Positions 1 through 23,593 of a stretch of 42,705 nucleotides of DNA are shown here, piece after piece; within the stretch, counting starts at the first letter, position 1, and each line of letters begins with the position of its first letter. The notes beneath the pieces are model-generated. The model was not told where the DNA came from. It ran no database searches and saw only the letters and a list, made by a program, of their open reading frames with translations. The stretch comes from an uncultured Atribacterota bacterium (GTDB taxonomy: Bacteria > Atribacterota > Phoenicimicrobiia > Phoenicimicrobiales > Stramentimicrobiaceae): positions 1 through 42,705 of the forward strand of contig CAYOLB010000348.1 of NCBI GenBank assembly GCA_964404675.1, written 5' to 3'. Both the position numbers and the translations under genes were made by a program.

Positions 1-346
1 AGAAGATAAAAGCAAATTCATTAATGAAGCAGAGGGTTACTATAATGATGTTATCCCTGATGCAAGAGGCGAAGCCGTCGAGATTACTAAAAAAGCAGAA
101 GGTTATAAAATCGAGAGAATTAGAAAGGCTGAAGGTGATGTGGCAAAGTTTAACCAGATTCTAAAGGAATATCAAAAAGGGAAAGAAGTAACAAAGTACC
201 GCTTGTATATTGAAACCATGGAATCAATTTTGCCTGGTATGAACAAATTTATTATGGAAAACAGTGATGACGAGGGTTTACTGAAATTTTTACCCCTTAA
301 TGAACAATCATGGCAGGACGCACCGGGGAAGGAGGTTGTTCAATAA
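1..346 (+). CDS. hflK: HflK (FtsH protease modulator, SPFH/band-7 family), C-terminal fragment; 5' end lies outside the window
   Basis: The frame from nt 2 is open to the TAA at 344-346. It translates to ...GEAVEITKKAEGYKIERIRKAEGDVAKFNQ...YRLYIETMESILPGMNKFIM..., which matches the HflK C-terminal conserved block (RLYIETME). The stop overlaps the hflC ATG at 346. Confidence 0.8.
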   Translation, partial: EDKSKFINEAEGYYNDVIPDARGEAVEITKKAEGYKIERIRKAEGDVAKFNQILKEYQKGKEVTKYRLYIETMESILPGMNKFIMENSDDEGLLKFLPLNEQSWQDAPGKEVVQ

Positions 347-1206
347 TGAAAAAGAATTTATTTTTAGTTATCTTAATCCTGTTAATCCTCATTGCTAATT
401 TTTCCTTATTTGTTGTTGATGAGACTAAACAAGCTATTATTCTACAATTTGGTAAACCGATAAAGGCAATTCAGGAAGCAGGATTATACATTAAAATCCC
501 CTTCATTCAAAATGTGGTTTTATTTGAAGGAAGACTTCTTATTTATGATGCACAGCCAACTGAGATTATTACCCGTGATAAGAAAACCCTGATTCTTGAT
601 AACTATGCCCGCTGGAAAATTGAAGACCCATTGCTTTTTCTGCAAACCGTAAGAGATATTAATGGAGCCCAGGCCCGCCTGGATGATGTTATCTATTCCG
701 AACTCAGGGTAGATTTGGGAAAATTTGACATGAGTGAGATTGTTTCCCAAAAAAGAACCGAGATTATGCAAACAGTTACCGAGCGAAGCAACGAAAAATC
801 AATGGAATATGGGATTAACATTGTTGATGTCAGGATAAAACGTGCAGACCTACCTACTGAAAATGAACAGAACATCTTTGCCAGGATGGAGGCAGAGCGG
901 GAAAGAATTGCCAAGCAATACCGTGCCGAAGGAAGAGAAGAGGCTGCAAAAATTGTTGCGGAAACCGAGAGAGAAAAGACTGTTATTTTAGCTGAAGCTT
1001 ATAAAGAAGCGCAAAATTTGCAGGGTGAAGGAGAAGCTGAATCAATTAGAATCTATGCTGAAAGCTTTAATCAGGACCCACAATTTTACCAATTCTTAAG
1101 AACACTGGAATCTTATGAAAACAGTTTTAGTGACAGTACCACTATTCTACTCTCACCTGATAATGAATACATCAAGTATATTAATCAAATAACGGTTGAT
1201 GAGTAA
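346..1206 (+). CDS. hflC: HflC (SPFH/band-7 membrane protease modulator)
   Basis: The protein MKKNLFLVILILLILIANFSLFVVDETKQAIILQFGKP... has an N-terminal TM helix followed by an SPFH domain and a coiled-coil, typical of HflC. It is overlap-coupled to hflK. The ORF-track start at 310 is an upstream in-frame extension. Confidence 0.85.
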   Translation: MKKNLFLVILILLILIANFSLFVVDETKQAIILQFGKPIKAIQEAGLYIKIPFIQNVVLFEGRLLIYDAQPTEIITRDKKTLILDNYARWKIEDPLLFLQTVRDINGAQARLDDVIYSELRVDLGKFDMSEIVSQKRTEIMQTVTERSNEKSMEYGINIVDVRIKRADLPTENEQNIFARMEAERERIAKQYRAEGREEAAKIVAETEREKTVILAEAYKEAQNLQGEGEAESIRIYAESFNQDPQFYQFLRTLESYENSFSDSTTILLSPDNEYIKYINQITVDE

Positions 1207-1225: not shown

Positions 1226-1278
1226 TGGGTCTTTCGAATTTCTAAATCTTCAAAGCAGAAAATTGTTCGAAAGACCTA
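1226..1278. terminator. Long-loop hairpin (13-bp stem including GGTCTTTCGAA/TTCGAAAGACC, 27-nt loop) followed by a T-rich run; putative terminator between convergent hflC and the fusion gene
   Basis: Inverted repeat 1226-1238 / 1266-1278 read directly from the sequence, followed by CTATTTATTTAT on the plus strand. Confidence 0.35.
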
Positions 1279-1324: not shown

Positions 1325-2974
1325 TTAATAGCCTTCTTCGAGGTTAATCTTATTTTTCGGCGCTTCTCCATAGAATATTCGGGAAATATTGTGATAGACA
1401 GATAGAATATTTTCTTCAATAGCCTTATCACTATAACCAGCATTGTGAGGTGTCATAATAATATTTGATAATTCATGAAAAGGATATTTGCTGGGCAATA
1501 TTTCACGATGGTTTTTATCAGGATATTGATACCAGGTATCTATAGCTGCACCTTCAAGAGTACCATTTTTTAAATTCTGGTACAATGCTTTTTCATCAAC
1601 AACCTTCCCCCTACCAATATTAATAAGGTACTTCCCTTTCATCTTTTTTAAGATATTTTCATCAATCATATTTTCAGTGCTATCAGTAAGAGGCACAGCT
1701 ATTATTATAAAATCTGATTTTTCAATAACATATTCTAATTGCTCATAATTGCCTAGAAAAGTTAACCCATATTTTTTATCTATTTTTTCTTCTCTCTGAA
1801 AAGAACGTTTAATAGCATAAATATTCATTCCGAATGACAATGCCCTTTTGGCAATTTCCAACCCGATAGAACCAAAGCCAATAATGCCTAAATTTTTTCC
1901 ATGGAGCTGTATTGTAGGTTCTTTGGTAATAAAACCATGCCATTTCCCTTGTCTCAGATCTTTATCATTGTTAACCAAATTTTTGGCCAGTGCTAATAAC
2001 AGGCAAATGGCATGTTCAGAAACAGCATGATTATTACCATGTGTGTTACATACAGTTATATTGGGAAATTTTTTAAAAGCATCTAAATATACTTTGTCCA
2101 CTCCTGCAAAGGGTATTTGAAAAAGTTTCAAGTTCTTTGCAATTCTAATGTCTTCTTCTGTTAAATCTCCTCCCACAATAATCTCAGCTTTGCTAATTTG
2201 TTTTTTCTGTTCATCTTTTTCTGGGGCTAAAAAAATTAAATTAAGTGGCAACTGACCTTTTTTATTGAATTTTTCTAACATTTCTAACCAATAATCCTGA
2301 CTGACCATTTTACTTATTATTAGAACATTCATTCTTTTACTCTTTTTTTGACCATTTATTTTTTTTGAATTCTGTAAATATTTCCGTGCAGCTACAATAT
2401 GCTTGCACTCTAAATTCCATTTTTTGCAATGGTTTTGGAAATCATAGCAATCGCATTCCGGGACTTCCAGATTAACATGGTAAATGTTATTATTATCTTT
2501 ATTTCTAACTAAGAATATATCCCCTTCTCGGGAAACATCCAGATTGTTTGCAGCCATTGCCCTACTATTCTGTTCTTCCTGAACCAATAACTTCCTTGCT
2601 AGATTATCAGCCAATTTATTTTCTTCTCTTCGATTCCAGATAAAAAAAACAGGAGCCTTAATCTCATTTAATAGTTCCTGTATTCTCTGATAAAGAGCAA
2701 CAATTTTATTATTTCTTACCTTAAACTGTTTATTCAGTTGTTTTACTACTAACTGACTATCACAATAAAATTCAATTTTTTCTGCAGGAATATCTCTAAC
2801 TTCCTCTAAGCCTTTGATTACAGCATGGTATTCAGCTATATTATTGGTTCCTTTCCCAACAATTTCATTAACTTTTTTAACCAGACTACCATCTTTATAA
2901 ATAACGACACCTATAGCCATTTTACCAGGATTTGGTATACAGGAACCATCTACTCGTACCAATAATTTTGACAT
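1325..2974 (-). CDS. Tri-domain fusion protein: N-terminal RNase H-like (RVT_3/type-1 RNase H, DEDD intact), central SWIM zinc finger, C-terminal D-isomer-specific 2-hydroxyacid dehydrogenase (NAD-binding)
   Basis: aa 1-135: VRVDGSC (D9), NNIAEYH (E48), YCDSQLVV (D72), KLADNLA (D123), the RNase HI catalytic tetrad. aa 174-192: CDCYDFQNHCKKWNLECKHIVAA, the SWIM CxCxnCxH motif. aa ~225-549: GKNLGIIGFGSIGLEIAKR (GxGxxG Rossmann), INIGRG (catalytic Arg), MTPHNAG (catalytic His). It is a single uninterrupted 549-aa ORF. AGGAGAAT sits 8 nt upstream of the ATG. Confidence 0.85.
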   Translation of the reverse strand: MSKLLVRVDGSCIPNPGKMAIGVVIYKDGSLVKKVNEIVGKGTNNIAEYHAVIKGLEEVRDIPAEKIEFYCDSQLVVKQLNKQFKVRNNKIVALYQRIQELLNEIKAPVFFIWNRREENKLADNLARKLLVQEEQNSRAMAANNLDVSREGDIFLVRNKDNNNIYHVNLEVPECDCYDFQNHCKKWNLECKHIVAARKYLQNSKKINGQKKSKRMNVLIISKMVSQDYWLEMLEKFNKKGQLPLNLIFLAPEKDEQKKQISKAEIIVGGDLTEEDIRIAKNLKLFQIPFAGVDKVYLDAFKKFPNITVCNTHGNNHAVSEHAICLLLALAKNLVNNDKDLRQGKWHGFITKEPTIQLHGKNLGIIGFGSIGLEIAKRALSFGMNIYAIKRSFQREEKIDKKYGLTFLGNYEQLEYVIEKSDFIIIAVPLTDSTENMIDENILKKMKGKYLINIGRGKVVDEKALYQNLKNGTLEGAAIDTWYQYPDKNHREILPSKYPFHELSNIIMTPHNAGYSDKAIEENILSVYHNISRIFYGEAPKNKINLEEGY

Positions 2975-3002
2975 AATTCTCCTCTTTTTTAACAGTAAAA
3001 AA

Positions 3003-3464
3003 TCAATACAATTCTTTTCTAAGTAATTGTTTTAACTGTTCCACTTGACTGGCAACTAATACTTGTTTTTTGTCTATATAATAATCAATCCAGGCACCTA
3101 CCTCAAAACGGAATAGTATTACCTTTTTACCATGATTTAGGGCTAATGCTATTTCTGAGATTGTTCCAGCCATACCTGGTAAGGCAATAACAATATCACT
3201 GCTTAAAATATTAATAACATTTCTTGCTAGGCCCATTCCAGTTACAATTGGGATATCAATATACTGAGATACAGAATTAGCATTGTCAGATGGTAAAACT
3301 CCCACTGTAATCCCACCGTTTTCTCTGGCACCTTTGGCTGTAGCCTCCATAACTCCGGAAGGTCTCCCGCCATTCAACAATACCCAGCCTTCCAGAGCAA
3401 TCATCTTCCCGATTTGATAGGCATATATTTCTTCATCATTGTCAACAAAGTGTGCACCACCCAT
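3003..3464 (-). CDS. LOG-family / TIGR00725-type Rossmann nucleotide-binding protein (SLOG superfamily). The true start is probably a non-ATG codon (ATT at 3489-3491) upstream of the ORF-track ATG
   Basis: Motifs GGRPSGVMEATAKGARENGGITVGVLP and ALPGMAGTISEIALAL correspond to the LOG GGGxxGLMGAxA and PGGxGTxxE signatures. The conserved N-terminal kkIIIGVmGG block lies in-frame upstream of the annotated ATG and is preceded by GGAGGA (3496-3501). Its stop is 28 nt upstream of the fusion gene start, so the two are probably one operon. Confidence 0.75.
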   Translation of the reverse strand: MGGAHFVDNDEEIYAYQIGKMIALEGWVLLNGGRPSGVMEATAKGARENGGITVGVLPSDNANSVSQYIDIPIVTGMGLARNVINILSSDIVIALPGMAGTISEIALALNHGKKVILFRFEVGAWIDYYIDKKQVLVASQVEQLKQLLRKELY

Positions 3465-3664
3465 AACACCAATTATTATTTTCTTTATAATATTATCCTC
3501 CGTTTATACTATCTTTAATATCTCTAAATCATAGTATAAAACAAATGAGATATTTAATTTTATGTATATAATATTATATAATTAATTTAATTACAAAATT
3601 ATCCAAATTATTTCCTAAAATCTGCTAGATGTAATATTTGACATTTTTTCATAAACAGCTAAAA

Positions 3665-3673
3665 TGTTATAAT
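3665..3673 (+). promoter_or_regulatory. Extended -10 element TGtTATAAT. A TTGACA at 3638-3643 lies 24 nt upstream, too far to serve as a -35. Candidate promoter for the 3750 gene.
   Basis: The sequence aaaaTGTTATAATtgag was read directly. It lies 77 nt upstream of the ATG at 3750. A minus-strand promoter for the LOG operon must also lie in this 285-nt AT-rich divergent region. Confidence 0.4.
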
Positions 3674-3749
3674 TGAGAATGGAATTTAAATAAGTATTTT
3701 TTCAAAACATGAAAATTTCTATTTCTCAATTAGTGAGGGGTTTTTAAAT

Positions 3750-4478
3750 ATGGATAAAAGAATACAATATGCCTTTGAGAATTCAGAGGTATTAAAATGG
3801 CCTAAACAACTACTCTCTTCCTTTGGGTCATCTGAGGTACATTATCATGTGTTAACTGAGCCAGTCTACCAGGAGTTTACCAAGGGTGTTAGTGAGACAG
3901 TTGTCAGAGAGGGAAAAGTAAGCTGGTACAGGCCACAGTTATTAACGCCAGACTATATTCTTAGAATCGAGGGGTTCAGTGATGAGGCAAGAAGTGCCTT
4001 TTCATCCCTGGCCAATGAAATGCCTGATATAGCAAGTATTTTATATCGTTTTCAATTTAAAAGAGAAGTTGATTCTATGAATTTCGTCAGTGGGAGCTTG
4101 GAGTCAGTCGCTGATAAGGTCTCAAGAGATATTGACAAAAGAGGCGACAATCTATCTGCAGTTATAAAAGGCGTTGGAGACTTGTGGGATATTTCTCTTT
4201 CAAAATTTATTCTTGATATGATGACCAGAAGTGCCCGACAATCCCAATTTCCTGAACTTCGAAAAAGAGGTTTGATTTCCTATAATCGATTTGGGCAACA
4301 GGTAGTCTCCAAAGATAACAGCGGGATTCCTATTGTGGCCAGGAGAGAGATTGAAGCCATGTTTGAAAAGGTCAAAAACGGAGAAATAGAACCAAAAGAC
4401 CTAAAAGGAGAATTGGATAGATGGGGTTTATTTGAAATATATCAGGATCGCTTTTTTGACCTGTTTAAAAGGAGGTAG
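3750..4478 (+). CDS. Hypothetical protein (242 aa), no recognisable family, no Cys, predicted soluble
   Basis: It is a long ORF with a GAGGGG RBS 9 nt upstream. Local GC and codon usage look protein-coding. It is the first gene of a coupled pair. Confidence 0.6.
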   Translation: MDKRIQYAFENSEVLKWPKQLLSSFGSSEVHYHVLTEPVYQEFTKGVSETVVREGKVSWYRPQLLTPDYILRIEGFSDEARSAFSSLANEMPDIASILYRFQFKREVDSMNFVSGSLESVADKVSRDIDKRGDNLSAVIKGVGDLWDISLSKFILDMMTRSARQSQFPELRKRGLISYNRFGQQVVSKDNSGIPIVARREIEAMFEKVKNGEIEPKDLKGELDRWGLFEIYQDRFFDLFKRR

Positions 4479-4484
4479 GTAATT

Positions 4485-5078
4485 GTGTCTCATATTAAAT
4501 CAGCATTGGAAATAGCTTTGGAAAAATCAAAAAAAATTAATAAATTAAGTCCACAAGAATTATCTGAGATAAAGCAAGAGAAAAAAATTGATAGTATTCT
4601 GGCTAAATATTACAAGAATCAGATTGAATCAGATGAGTTATGGAAAGTTCTAAAGGGTTTTTCAAATAAACTCTTAATTAAGGCTCAAAATAATTTTATA
4701 CAGTCTTTATCCTTTCAGAGCAACGACTATGAAATTGAAAAAAGAAAAAACGGAATACTGGCTATTGAAAACTTGAAGGAAGATAATCAGTCATCAAATA
4801 TAGAAATATACCTTGAACAGTTAAAAAATATAAGGGATGAATTCCAAAAAAACAAAGAAAAGATAATTGAAAATTTGAAAGAAGAATTAGAAAGAGACCC
4901 TCAGAAAAGGCTACAGACCTTGCAGCAAGGAAATCAGATTGTAATAAAACAGTTAAGCTTGGAAGAGGCATTGGAACAAAATACCCAATTGAAACAAAAC
5001 CTTAATCATTTTGAGAAACAATTAAAAGAAAAATTCAATCTGGTTAAAGAAAAATTGAGTGAAATTATTAATGAATAA
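4485..5078 (+). CDS. Hypothetical coiled-coil protein (197 aa, K/E/Q-rich heptad-like repeats); GTG start coupled to the upstream gene
   Basis: AGGAGG lies 9 nt upstream of the GTG at 4485. It sits 6 nt after the stop of the 3750-4478 gene. The protein reads EIKQEKKIDSILAKYYKNQIESDELWK...LEQLKNIRDEFQKNKEKIIENLKEELERD. Confidence 0.55.
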   Translation: MSHIKSALEIALEKSKKINKLSPQELSEIKQEKKIDSILAKYYKNQIESDELWKVLKGFSNKLLIKAQNNFIQSLSFQSNDYEIEKRKNGILAIENLKEDNQSSNIEIYLEQLKNIRDEFQKNKEKIIENLKEELERDPQKRLQTLQQGNQIVIKQLSLEEALEQNTQLKQNLNHFEKQLKEKFNLVKEKLSEIINE

Positions 5079-22468: not shown

Positions 22469-23593
22469 TTATATTCTAATATATCTTTTACCTTCGACTT
22501 CCCTTATTAGGTTTTTTAGCTCAAGTGACAATAGTGTTTCATTTAATTGTGCCATGCTTAATTCTGTCAAATCAGCGATTTCATCAATATGCAAAGGGTC
22601 TGTAGAAATATACTGCAAAAAAACTTTCTCATGTTCATTTAAATCATCAATATTAATATTTTCATCTTTTTTTTTGGAATTTTCACTACTCTTATTATAG
22701 ATATCCTCTATTTCCAGCTCTTCTATTATATCATGGTAACTATTTACCAGTTTTGCCCCCTGTTTAATCAAATCATGACAACCTTTTGAAAGAAAAGAAT
22801 GGATACTTCCCGGAATGGCAAATACTTCTCTTCCCTGGTCAAGGGAATAATCAGCCGTAATTAGAGCACCACTTTTCTCGGTAGCTTCCACAACCAAAGT
22901 ACCCATGGATAATCCACTAATAATCCGATTTCTTCTGGGAAAATTACTCTTTTCCGGTTTTGTATAGATTGGGAACTCAGTGATTATAGCACCATTTTTC
23001 ATAATCTTATTAGCAATAGATACGTTCTCAGCTGGATATATACGATCAATTCCACATCCCAAGACTGCAACTGTTTTGCCACCTGCCTCTAGTGCACCGA
23101 GGTGGGCATTAGTATCAATACCCCTGGCCAAACCGCTAATGATAGTATATCCCCTGGAGGCTAATTCTAAAGAAATATCTCGGGCAATTTTTCTTCCATA
23201 ATAGCTTGCCTTCCTAGAGCCAACAATGGCTAGGGTCTTCTTGTTATTCACCATATCCAGAAAATTTCCCTGGTAATAAATAATAGGTGGCGGATCATAA
23301 ATATTTTTTAACAATACTGGATAATCATCATCCTTAATAGTAATTACATTAACTTTCATCTTTTCCAACAATAATAATTCCCTATCAGGATTAATATTTT
23401 GTTTCTGGGTTTCTATTTTTCTCCAGGTATTCTGTCCAATATGTAATATCTTGCTAATATCTTTTTTTCTACTATTATTCCAGGCCTCTTCAAGAGAAGA
23501 AAATGATTTTTCTAAATTAGAAAAGCGAATCGGACCAATTTCTTTAACTTTATTCCAGGCTAGCCAATATTTTAATTCTTGTTTTTTTAACAT
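22469..23593 (-). CDS. dprA: DNA processing protein DprA/Smf
   Basis: The Rossmann-like DprA core is GSRKASYYGRKIARDISLELASRGYTIISGLARGIDTNAH...AVLGCGIDRIYP, followed by a C-terminal winged-helix region. Confidence 0.9.
   Translation of the reverse strand: MLKKQELKYWLAWNKVKEIGPIRFSNLEKSFSSLEEAWNNSRKKDISKILHIGQNTWRKIETQKQNINPDRELLLLEKMKVNVITIKDDDYPVLLKNIYDPPPIIYYQGNFLDMVNNKKTLAIVGSRKASYYGRKIARDISLELASRGYTIISGLARGIDTNAHLGALEAGGKTVAVLGCGIDRIYPAENVSIANKIMKNGAIITEFPIYTKPEKSNFPRRNRIISGLSMGTLVVEATEKSGALITADYSLDQGREVFAIPGSIHSFLSKGCHDLIKQGAKLVNSYHDIIEELEIEDIYNKSSENSKKKDENINIDDLNEHEKVFLQYISTDPLHIDEIADLTELSMAQLNETLLSLELKNLIREVEGKRYIRI

Follow-up and report, generated by a model that had tools for sequence, protein, structure and literature searches.

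Only a handful of bacterial genes besides infC are known to have conserved a near-cognate start codon over long evolutionary distances. In E. coli, AUA, AUC and AUU reach 0.1-3% of the AUG level and only infC and pcnB are confirmed there (bioRxiv 10.1101/063800), in S. aureus the cvfC1, ccpN and infC genes have conserved AUU or AUA starts with extended Shine-Dalgarno (SD) sites and attain about 10-30% of the AUG level (PMC13009471), and non-AUG starts are described as more sensitive to nutrient state and guanosine tetraphosphate (ppGpp) (PMC5499595). The TIGR00725 / SLOG cluster 4 family has molybdenum cofactor (Moco) carrier proteins (MCPs) as its only characterised members; in RoMCP, the MCP of Rippkaea orientalis, the first strand (beta1) occupies the centre of the sheet and leads into a GxGxxA/G loop (PMC7470044). 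Here we analyze a 42,705-nucleotide stretch of DNA from an uncultured Atribacterota bacterium (contig CAYOLB010000348.1 of assembly GCA_964404675.1; the whole stretch is called the window) that encodes a member of this family, the SLOG gene, directly upstream of a gene for an enzyme in which an RNase H domain, a SWIM zinc finger and a D-2-hydroxyacid dehydrogenase (2HADH) domain are fused. On comparative sequence evidence, SLOG translation almost certainly starts at a near-cognate ATT, ATC or ATA codon (collectively AUH) and not at the annotated ATG, and we consider it very likely that family assignment, operon structure and AUH start hold jointly. The elements of the SLOG gene are:

3003..3488, minus strand: SLOG cluster 4 / TIGR00725 coding sequence, Moco-carrier-related, 161 amino acids from ATA or 162 amino acids from ATT
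3005-3003, minus strand: TGA stop codon of the SLOG gene, read directly from the sequence
3496..3501, minus strand: SD element GGAGGA of the SLOG gene, read directly from the sequence
3486..3488, minus strand: ATA, most probable initiation codon, 8 nt after GGAGG and directly before the conserved [R/K]K
3489..3491, minus strand: ATT, alternative initiation codon, 5 nt after GGAGG and one codon upstream of the ATA
3462..3464, minus strand: internal ATG (Met10 counted from ATT) at the end of strand beta1, without an SD, the start used in the database

The coordinates that an earlier note on this DNA had given for the SLOG/fusion locus are all correct on direct reading, which also bears out its remark that the conserved N-terminal block extends upstream of the only ATG and is preceded by a GGAGGA ribosome-binding site. 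The ATG at 3464-3462 is the sole in-frame ATG, GTG or TTG of the SLOG open reading frame; upstream of it the frame is open for 13 codons (taa ACG GAG GAT AAT ATT ATA AAG AAA ATA ATA ATT GGT GTT ATG), and the conserved first strand (KKIIIGVM) is encoded there. Paired with a generic anti-SD sequence, which was used for all duplex energies, the GGAGGA of SLOG yields -9.5 kcal/mol, whereas the median over the 33 remaining window genes is -6.4 and the value upstream of the internal ATG is -2.1 kcal/mol. All 33 of these genes have in-frame canonical starts, most of them with an SD-like site, and among the 34 genes compared SLOG is the only one with a strong SD followed by AUH codons only. The SD and the start codons are unpaired in the predicted fold of the initiation region, whose stability is not higher than that of shuffled sequences (z = -1.3), and we therefore propose no structural switch for SLOG. 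The database entry for the window protein (P0001) has 153 amino acids and begins MGGAHF at the internal Met.

The comparison set consisted of 62 non-identical Atribacterota loci in which a SLOG gene is followed by the fusion gene, taken from one genome per species and from metagenomes, with the 5' ends aligned on the conserved GVMGG block. The codon before the conserved [R/K]-K-I-I-I-G-V-M-G-G is ATT in 34 loci, ATC in 21, ATA in 6 and ATG in a single one (L031, where the ATG lies precisely at the start-homologous codon). No ATG, GTG or TTG occurs within 14 codons upstream of the GVMGG Gly, or as far as a nearer upstream stop, in 44 of the 62 loci, and a scan of species genomes (the window plus 30 species loci) found no canonical start back to the stop in 20 of its 31 rows. 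The canonical codons of the remaining loci lie mostly inside the SD element (GGGGTG, ATGGAGG) or inside beta1. In locus L005 an in-frame TGA separates the SD from the ATC, so that AAT ATC are the sole available codons, and together with L031 this locus fixes the start position; an out-of-frame ATG in L005, 1 nt after the SD, was rejected as being in the wrong frame. An SD-like element is found at the same place as that of the window in 60 of 62 relatives, its last GG stands 6-8 nt upstream of the homologous codon in 54 of 62, and the mean SD duplex energy over the set is -9.2 kcal/mol before the homologous codon versus -2.5 before the internal ATG. Downstream of the start, codon choice differs among loci (CGT, AGA or CGA for Arg, AAA or AAG for Lys, and ATT, ATA or ATC for Ile), and this synonymous variation indicates that the region is translated.

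Homologues outside the phylum also begin upstream of the annotated Met. Among 32 outgroup loci from other phyla, which lack the fusion and share about 50-60% identity, 29 have a canonical start at codons -5 to -12, most often an ATG at -7 or -6. The residue numbers used in the RoMCP paper (Arg42, Asn72, Asn87, Arg89, Lys118 and Asn119) fit the PDB chain only at an offset of 12, which places the native Met1 directly before R-K-P-I-I-G-V-M and means that this studied relative starts at the homologous codon. The idea that homologues might normally start at the equivalent of the annotated Met, named in the earlier note as a point against its proposal, thus found no support, and its warning that the start is easily mis-annotated proved apt: every Atribacterota database copy examined has a wrong N-terminus. 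These copies form two classes, one of about 151-164 amino acids that starts with MGG like P0001 and is cut at the internal Met, with loss of the central beta-strand, and one of about 166-190 amino acids with varied N-terminal extensions that run into the SD. Structural or biochemical work on the annotated SLOG sequence would fail, and the case offers a clean benchmark for start-codon prediction. We also observed a 55%-identical homologue without a downstream fusion on metagenome contig Ga0067045_1002958 (L089), which has ATT at the start-homologous codon and, as its only upstream canonical codon, a TTG inside beta1; it may represent a second lineage with an AUH start.

Which of the two AUH codons of the window is used can be judged by homology. 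The earlier note had proposed non-ATG initiation at ATT or ATA; relatives have AUH at the homologous position in 61 of 62 cases, and the comparison favors ATA 3488-3486, the start-homologous codon, as the most probable start, since its position (codon -6) is AUH or AUG in all 62 loci and Met1 of RoMCP maps to it. Initiation at ATT 3491-3489, which would yield a protein of 162 amino acids, one residue longer, is unlikely, if still a serious contender: its distance of 5 nt from GGAGG is usable, the closest relatives (L081, L035 and L082) likewise carry AT[T/C] at codon -7, and AUU is the classic near-cognate start of infC and pcnB, but across the phylum codon -7 varies (ACT, GCT, GTT, CCT, AAT, TTT, AAA and others) whereas codon -6 does not depart from AUH or AUG, and the usual distance between the last GG and the start is the 6-8 nt seen in 54 of 62 loci. 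A start at an ATT directly after the SD (codon -8 in relatives) was tried and rejected, its spacing being zero and the codon not conserved. It counts against the reading as a whole that ATA and ATT both have workable SD spacing (8 and 5 nt), that the 62 loci are phylogenetically related, many of them from one JS1-like clade, and the counts are not independent events, and that L081 and L035 carry an ATG 4-5 codons further upstream, overlapping the SD, which is conceivably usable there. That translation starts instead at the annotated ATG 3464-3462, to give 153 amino acids with the upstream similarity untranslated, is barely credible. It is the sole canonical start and the choice of every gene caller, but no SD precedes it (-2.1 kcal/mol in the window and a mean of -2.5 over the 62 loci), its product would be without strand beta1, the upstream codons are conserved at the protein level with synonymous and Arg-codon changes, and homologues in other phyla as well as RoMCP begin upstream. 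The two starts make different predictions for the protein: the tryptic peptide IIIGVMGGAHFVDNDEEIYAYQIGK spans the annotated Met and is impossible from a protein starting at that residue.

Two further explanations would accept the lack of a canonical start but deny it significance. The gene could be decaying in the window genome, its start lost by a T-to-C change (ATG GAG G to ACG GAG G), as L081 (86% identity) and L035 and L084 (75%) have ATG at codon -11 where the window has ACG. We regard decay as highly improbable, for that ATG shares bases with the SD and lacks one of its own, 44 of 62 relatives across the phylum are likewise without a canonical start, the ratio of nonsynonymous to synonymous substitution rates against the nearest relatives is 0.21 and 0.14, indicating purifying selection, and the reading frame is intact with all family-invariant residues kept. 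Seven independent assemblies, 97.7-99.7% identical overall, have the same 5' region and SLOG reading frame, and the arrangement is thus not an assembly error. Alternatively, AUH starts might be common throughout Atribacterota genomes through relaxed start selection, in which case SLOG would not be special. The comparison covered only the 42.7-kb window and flanking loci, which leaves this idea some room, but it is improbable given that 33 of 33 other window genes are canonical, with SLOG the sole strong-SD, AUH-only case, and that the fusion gene starts with ATG in 61 of the 62 loci. The conserved AUH start, in the window at ATA or less likely at ATT, is the preferred reading.

The SLOG protein is a small Rossmann-like protein of about 161 amino acids that belongs to TIGR00725 / SLOG cluster 4. 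It matches PF18306 (SLOG cluster 4, LDcluster4) with 171.6 bits (cutoff 26.3) over profile positions 1-149 of 151, profile position 1 being aligned to residue 4 of the ATT-started protein, and TIGR00725 with 117.8 bits (cutoff 106.9), and the LOG phosphoribohydrolase models stay below their cutoffs (51.8 bits versus 96.35 for TIGR00730 and 42.8 versus 300 for NF058542, CtkRMPhLog). The AlphaFold2 model (mean predicted local distance difference test score 91.3) has a Rossmann-like three-layer fold in which beta1 comprises residues 6-10 (I-I-G-V-M), and a protein made from the annotated Met would thus lose the strand that is central in RoMCP. The top structural matches are 6Y01, that is RoMCP (E = 1.8e-37, TM-score 0.91, 46% identity), and 2IZ5, CrMCP of Chlamydomonas reinhardtii (E = 2.8e-31, 41-45% identity to the CrMCP chains); LOG enzymes rank next at 17-27% identity. 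Across the MCPs (RoMCP and CrMCP, PDB 2IZ5-7) the likeness extends to the same family and size, 42-46% identity, TM-scores of 0.85-0.92 and a shared N-terminus, M-R-K-x-I-I-G-V-M-G, followed by a Gly-rich loop. The authors of the RoMCP study worked with 50-60% identity to CrMCP (PMC7470044), and the 41-45% of SLOG lies just below that range. A full-text literature search for TIGR00725 found no match, and one for Atribacteria with molybdopterin found a passing mention only. Elsewhere in the window, the DprA gene (22469-23593, minus strand) has a weak PF18306 match of 27.2 bits, which is the expected cross-match within the SLOG superfamily and not a second SLOG copy.

The most likely ligand of the protein is a phosphate-bearing compound of the pterin or nucleotide type. 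That this ligand is Moco itself is possible but doubtful. The phosphate-shielding Arg42 and Arg89 of RoMCP, contacts known from docking, are kept as R43 and R90, and the other four of the six docked Moco contacts differ (N72→S73, N87→L88, K118→N119 and N119→H120). The host, unlike those of the MCPs, is a strict anaerobe, and the authors of the RoMCP study questioned whether a Moco carrier is needed in anaerobes (PMC7470044); this doubt and the small number of kept contacts count against Moco as the ligand. Where MCPs have G-[IM]-G-x-G-T, SLOG has the LOG-like P-G-x-A-G-T-x-S-E. The LOG phosphoribohydrolases (TIGR00730; cytokinin riboside 5'-monophosphate phosphoribohydrolase, PpnN/YgdH) share the SLOG fold and likewise have a 23-residue spacing between an Arg and a Glu (R90 and E113 in SLOG) and a motif like that of SLOG, the LOG family motif being PGGxGTxxE. 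The SLOG motif, LPGMAGTISE in the window and PG[RSK]AGTISE in relatives, fits P-G-x-x-G-T-x-x-E without the third Gly, and PGMAGTISE looks more LOG-like than MCP-like.

The SLOG gene is followed on the same strand by the fusion gene, with these elements:

2975..3002, minus strand: spacer of 28 nt between the SLOG and fusion genes, holding the fusion SD GAGGAG at 2984-2979
2974-2972, minus strand: ATG start codon of the fusion gene, read directly from the sequence
1325..2974, minus strand: fusion gene, 549 amino acids, defined by Pfam and NCBIfam matches
about 2585-2974, minus strand: RNase H domain of the fusion
about 2393-2461, minus strand: SWIM zinc finger of the fusion
about 1328-2332, minus strand: 2HADH domain of the fusion

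That SLOG is the first gene of a two-gene operon and the fusion gene the second is strongly supported by the arrangement of the sequence. The spacer contains an SD, a terminator scan found no terminator-like site or hairpin between the genes, and the order SLOG then fusion is conserved across Atribacterota; together these make the pair look like one operon, in agreement with the earlier note, which had called it a probable operon from the 28-nt gap with only a ribosome-binding site in it. Of about 39 species loci with upstream sequence, 33 have SLOG immediately before the fusion. In the comparison set, 34 of 62 loci show an overlap of 8 nt (ATGTCTAA) between the two genes and 3 show one of 7 nt, with 2-38 nt between the genes in 24 of the other 25; the fusion SD has a mean energy of -6.4 kcal/mol. 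The earlier note had also asked whether TIGR00725 genes adjoin RNase H/2HADH genes in relatives, and they do so across Atribacterota but not outside the phylum, where TIGR00725 genes have unrelated neighbors.

That the SLOG protein is functionally linked to the fusion enzyme is a conjecture. At the syntenic site, SLOG has been deleted in at least five fusion-bearing species (L013, L017, L020, L021 and L023), which argues against an obligate partnership, and the context upstream of the fusion is different in L034. The block around the pair is itself syntenic across the phylum (hypB-hypA, then the divergent SLOG-fusion genes, then a convergent hflC, near gatAB and ligA), so that adjacency alone is weak evidence for a shared function. 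As to the deletions themselves, an in-frame SLOG remnant of 30 codons at about 4880-5003 of L017 still has the SD, starts with ATC and overlaps by 8 nt at the fusion ATG, and in L021 and L023 SLOG is reduced to its last few codons, which carry the SD of the fusion.

The full-length fusion architecture was found in Atribacterota only, with near-constant length and in essentially every species sampled, and the analysis draws attention to an uncharacterised, phylum-restricted operon partner of SLOG. Its invariant residues are D9/E48/D72/D123 of the RNase H domain, C174/C176/C190/H192 of the SWIM finger and R455/H510 of the 2HADH domain; taken alone, the dehydrogenase part is most closely related to proteins of Thermotogota. 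Among solved structures, the RNase H domain is best matched by the N-terminal domain of M. tuberculosis Rv2228c (RNase HI plus CobC acid phosphatase; PDB 3HST; E = 2e-16), a protein which shows that an archaeal-type RNase HI can be joined to a metabolic enzyme, although its partner is a phosphatase and the fusion described here has a SWIM finger and a 2HADH domain instead. In the latter domain, Tyr484 replaces the Glu of the catalytic His-Glu pair (DVFxxEP in the glyoxylate reductases 2D0I and 5AOV, DTWYQYP in the fusion) and is invariant in 14 Atribacterota fusions, with Arg455 and His510 kept, and this 2HADH domain may have an unusual substrate or mechanism or serve as a sensor of NAD(H).

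Non-coding and divergent elements flank the two genes on either side:

3502..3749, no strand: AT-rich divergent intergenic region between SLOG and the hypothetical gene at 3750, presumed promoter site
1228..1276, no strand: hairpin with an 11-bp stem (GGTCTTTCGAA … TTCGAAAGACC) and a 27-nt loop, between the convergent fusion and hflC-like genes
3750-4478 and 4485-5078, plus strand: hypothetical gene pair, divergent from SLOG

Promoter-like matches in 3502-3749 are no commoner than in shuffles (18 versus 15.2 ± 3.4), an Rfam scan of 2900-3800 (E <= 1) gave no match, the Moco riboswitch included, and an alignment of the 150 nt upstream of the start in 59 loci revealed nothing conserved beyond the SD. 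At the other end, the 126 nt from 1205 to 1330 have a predicted folding energy of -30.8 kcal/mol (z = -3.25 versus shuffles), and the modelled hairpin at 1228-1276, which a simple terminator scan missed because its loop is 27 nt, is likely a two-way terminator that would mark the end of the operon. The hflC-like SPFH gene beyond it (310-1206, plus strand) has no SD before its first ATG (310), and ATG 346 has AAGGAGGT 9 nt upstream, which suggests that its real start is probably 346. Searches of Pfam, NCBIfam, PADLOC and PDB found no match for the hypothetical pair at 3750-5078; the first gene of the pair (3750-4478), with 56-90% identity across the phylum, surpasses SLOG in conservation and adjoins the SLOG/fusion locus wherever upstream sequence was recovered, except in L034.

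The earlier note had further pointed to nucleotide-signalling conflict systems, in which LOG/SLOG domains act as sensor or effector modules in other contexts, and here the evidence turned the other way. In a conflict (defence) module of this kind, a nucleotide signal would be sensed or processed by SLOG, with the RNase H fusion as effector. SLOG domains play such roles in other systems (PMC6459960, citing Burroughs 2015), and the homologue of Desulfofarcimen acetoxidans lies among helicase-PLD, SLFN/AlbA, integrase and IS605 genes. The Atribacterota locus, by contrast, sits in a core block that is syntenic across the phylum, the rest of the 42.7-kb window is housekeeping (gatAB, ligA, surE, dprA, rsmB, fmt, def, priA, coaBC, gmk, ileS, lspA and divIVA), PADLOC returned only a partial PsyrA match of 20 bits over 57 residues, the fusion occurs in nearly all sampled species of the phylum, unlike patchy defence genes, and the closest characterised relatives of SLOG are Moco carriers. 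A conflict module is very improbable on this evidence, and the likely role of SLOG shifts from conflict systems towards the Moco-carrier family. The D. acetoxidans gene (L079; CP001720, 1511316-1521813), a 53%-identical TIGR00725 homologue, stands alone between helicase-PLD, SLFN/AlbA-ATPase, integrase-fragment and IS605 transposase genes, a context that resembles a mobile or defence island and differs from that of the Atribacterota genes.

How an AUH start might act in this operon can be outlined from known systems. The strong GGAGGA is positioned for the AUH codon of SLOG, and the N-terminus that follows from this is the one required by the fold. The initiator tRNA would pair with only two of the three bases of the AUH codon, and initiation would be inefficient and open to proofreading by initiation factor 3 (IF3); SLOG protein would then be scarce compared with the fusion enzyme, which would be initiated independently from its own ATG and SD. 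We give roughly even chances to the proposal that the AUH start attenuates translation of the first gene of the operon; the efficiency figures stem from E. coli and S. aureus, not from Atribacterota, and this tells against a direct transfer. That ATG, which brings in the same formylmethionine, occurs in only one of 62 loci is a hint of selection for a weak start, from loci that are not independent samples, and the interchange of ATT, ATC and ATA across the phylum suggests selection for low expression and offers a testable system. A more ambitious scheme, in which the AUH start is a selected regulatory device, synthesis responsive to IF3, ppGpp or growth sets the ratio of SLOG to fusion, and SLOG serves as ligand-sensing partner of the fusion in a phylum-specific unit connecting cofactor or nucleotide pools to the processing of RNA/DNA hybrids, would be a long shot.

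The SLOG start is a new example of a known mechanism, the conserved near-cognate start codon that keeps translation low in infC, pcnB and ccpN and may do so in SLOG. A full-text literature search for Atribacteria and start codon found nothing relevant. The known genes with near-cognate starts like that of SLOG include infC (AUU/AUA), E. coli pcnB (AUU), ccpN of S. aureus and B. subtilis (AUA), S. aureus cvfC1 (AUU) and E. faecalis ebpA (ATT), and in these, as in SLOG, the AUH codon stands at a fixed position after a strong or extended SD, is conserved in relatives and is passed over by annotation pipelines in favor of a downstream ATG; the expected outcome is low, IF3-sensitive expression. SLOG differs in belonging to another gene family and another phylum, in having a start deduced from sequence, and in being encoded, unlike the MCP genes, which start with ATG, from an AUH codon. 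It is also without the link to the initiation machinery that infC has, and, unlike in the known near-cognate genes, its conservation spans a whole phylum in which all three AUH codons interchange.

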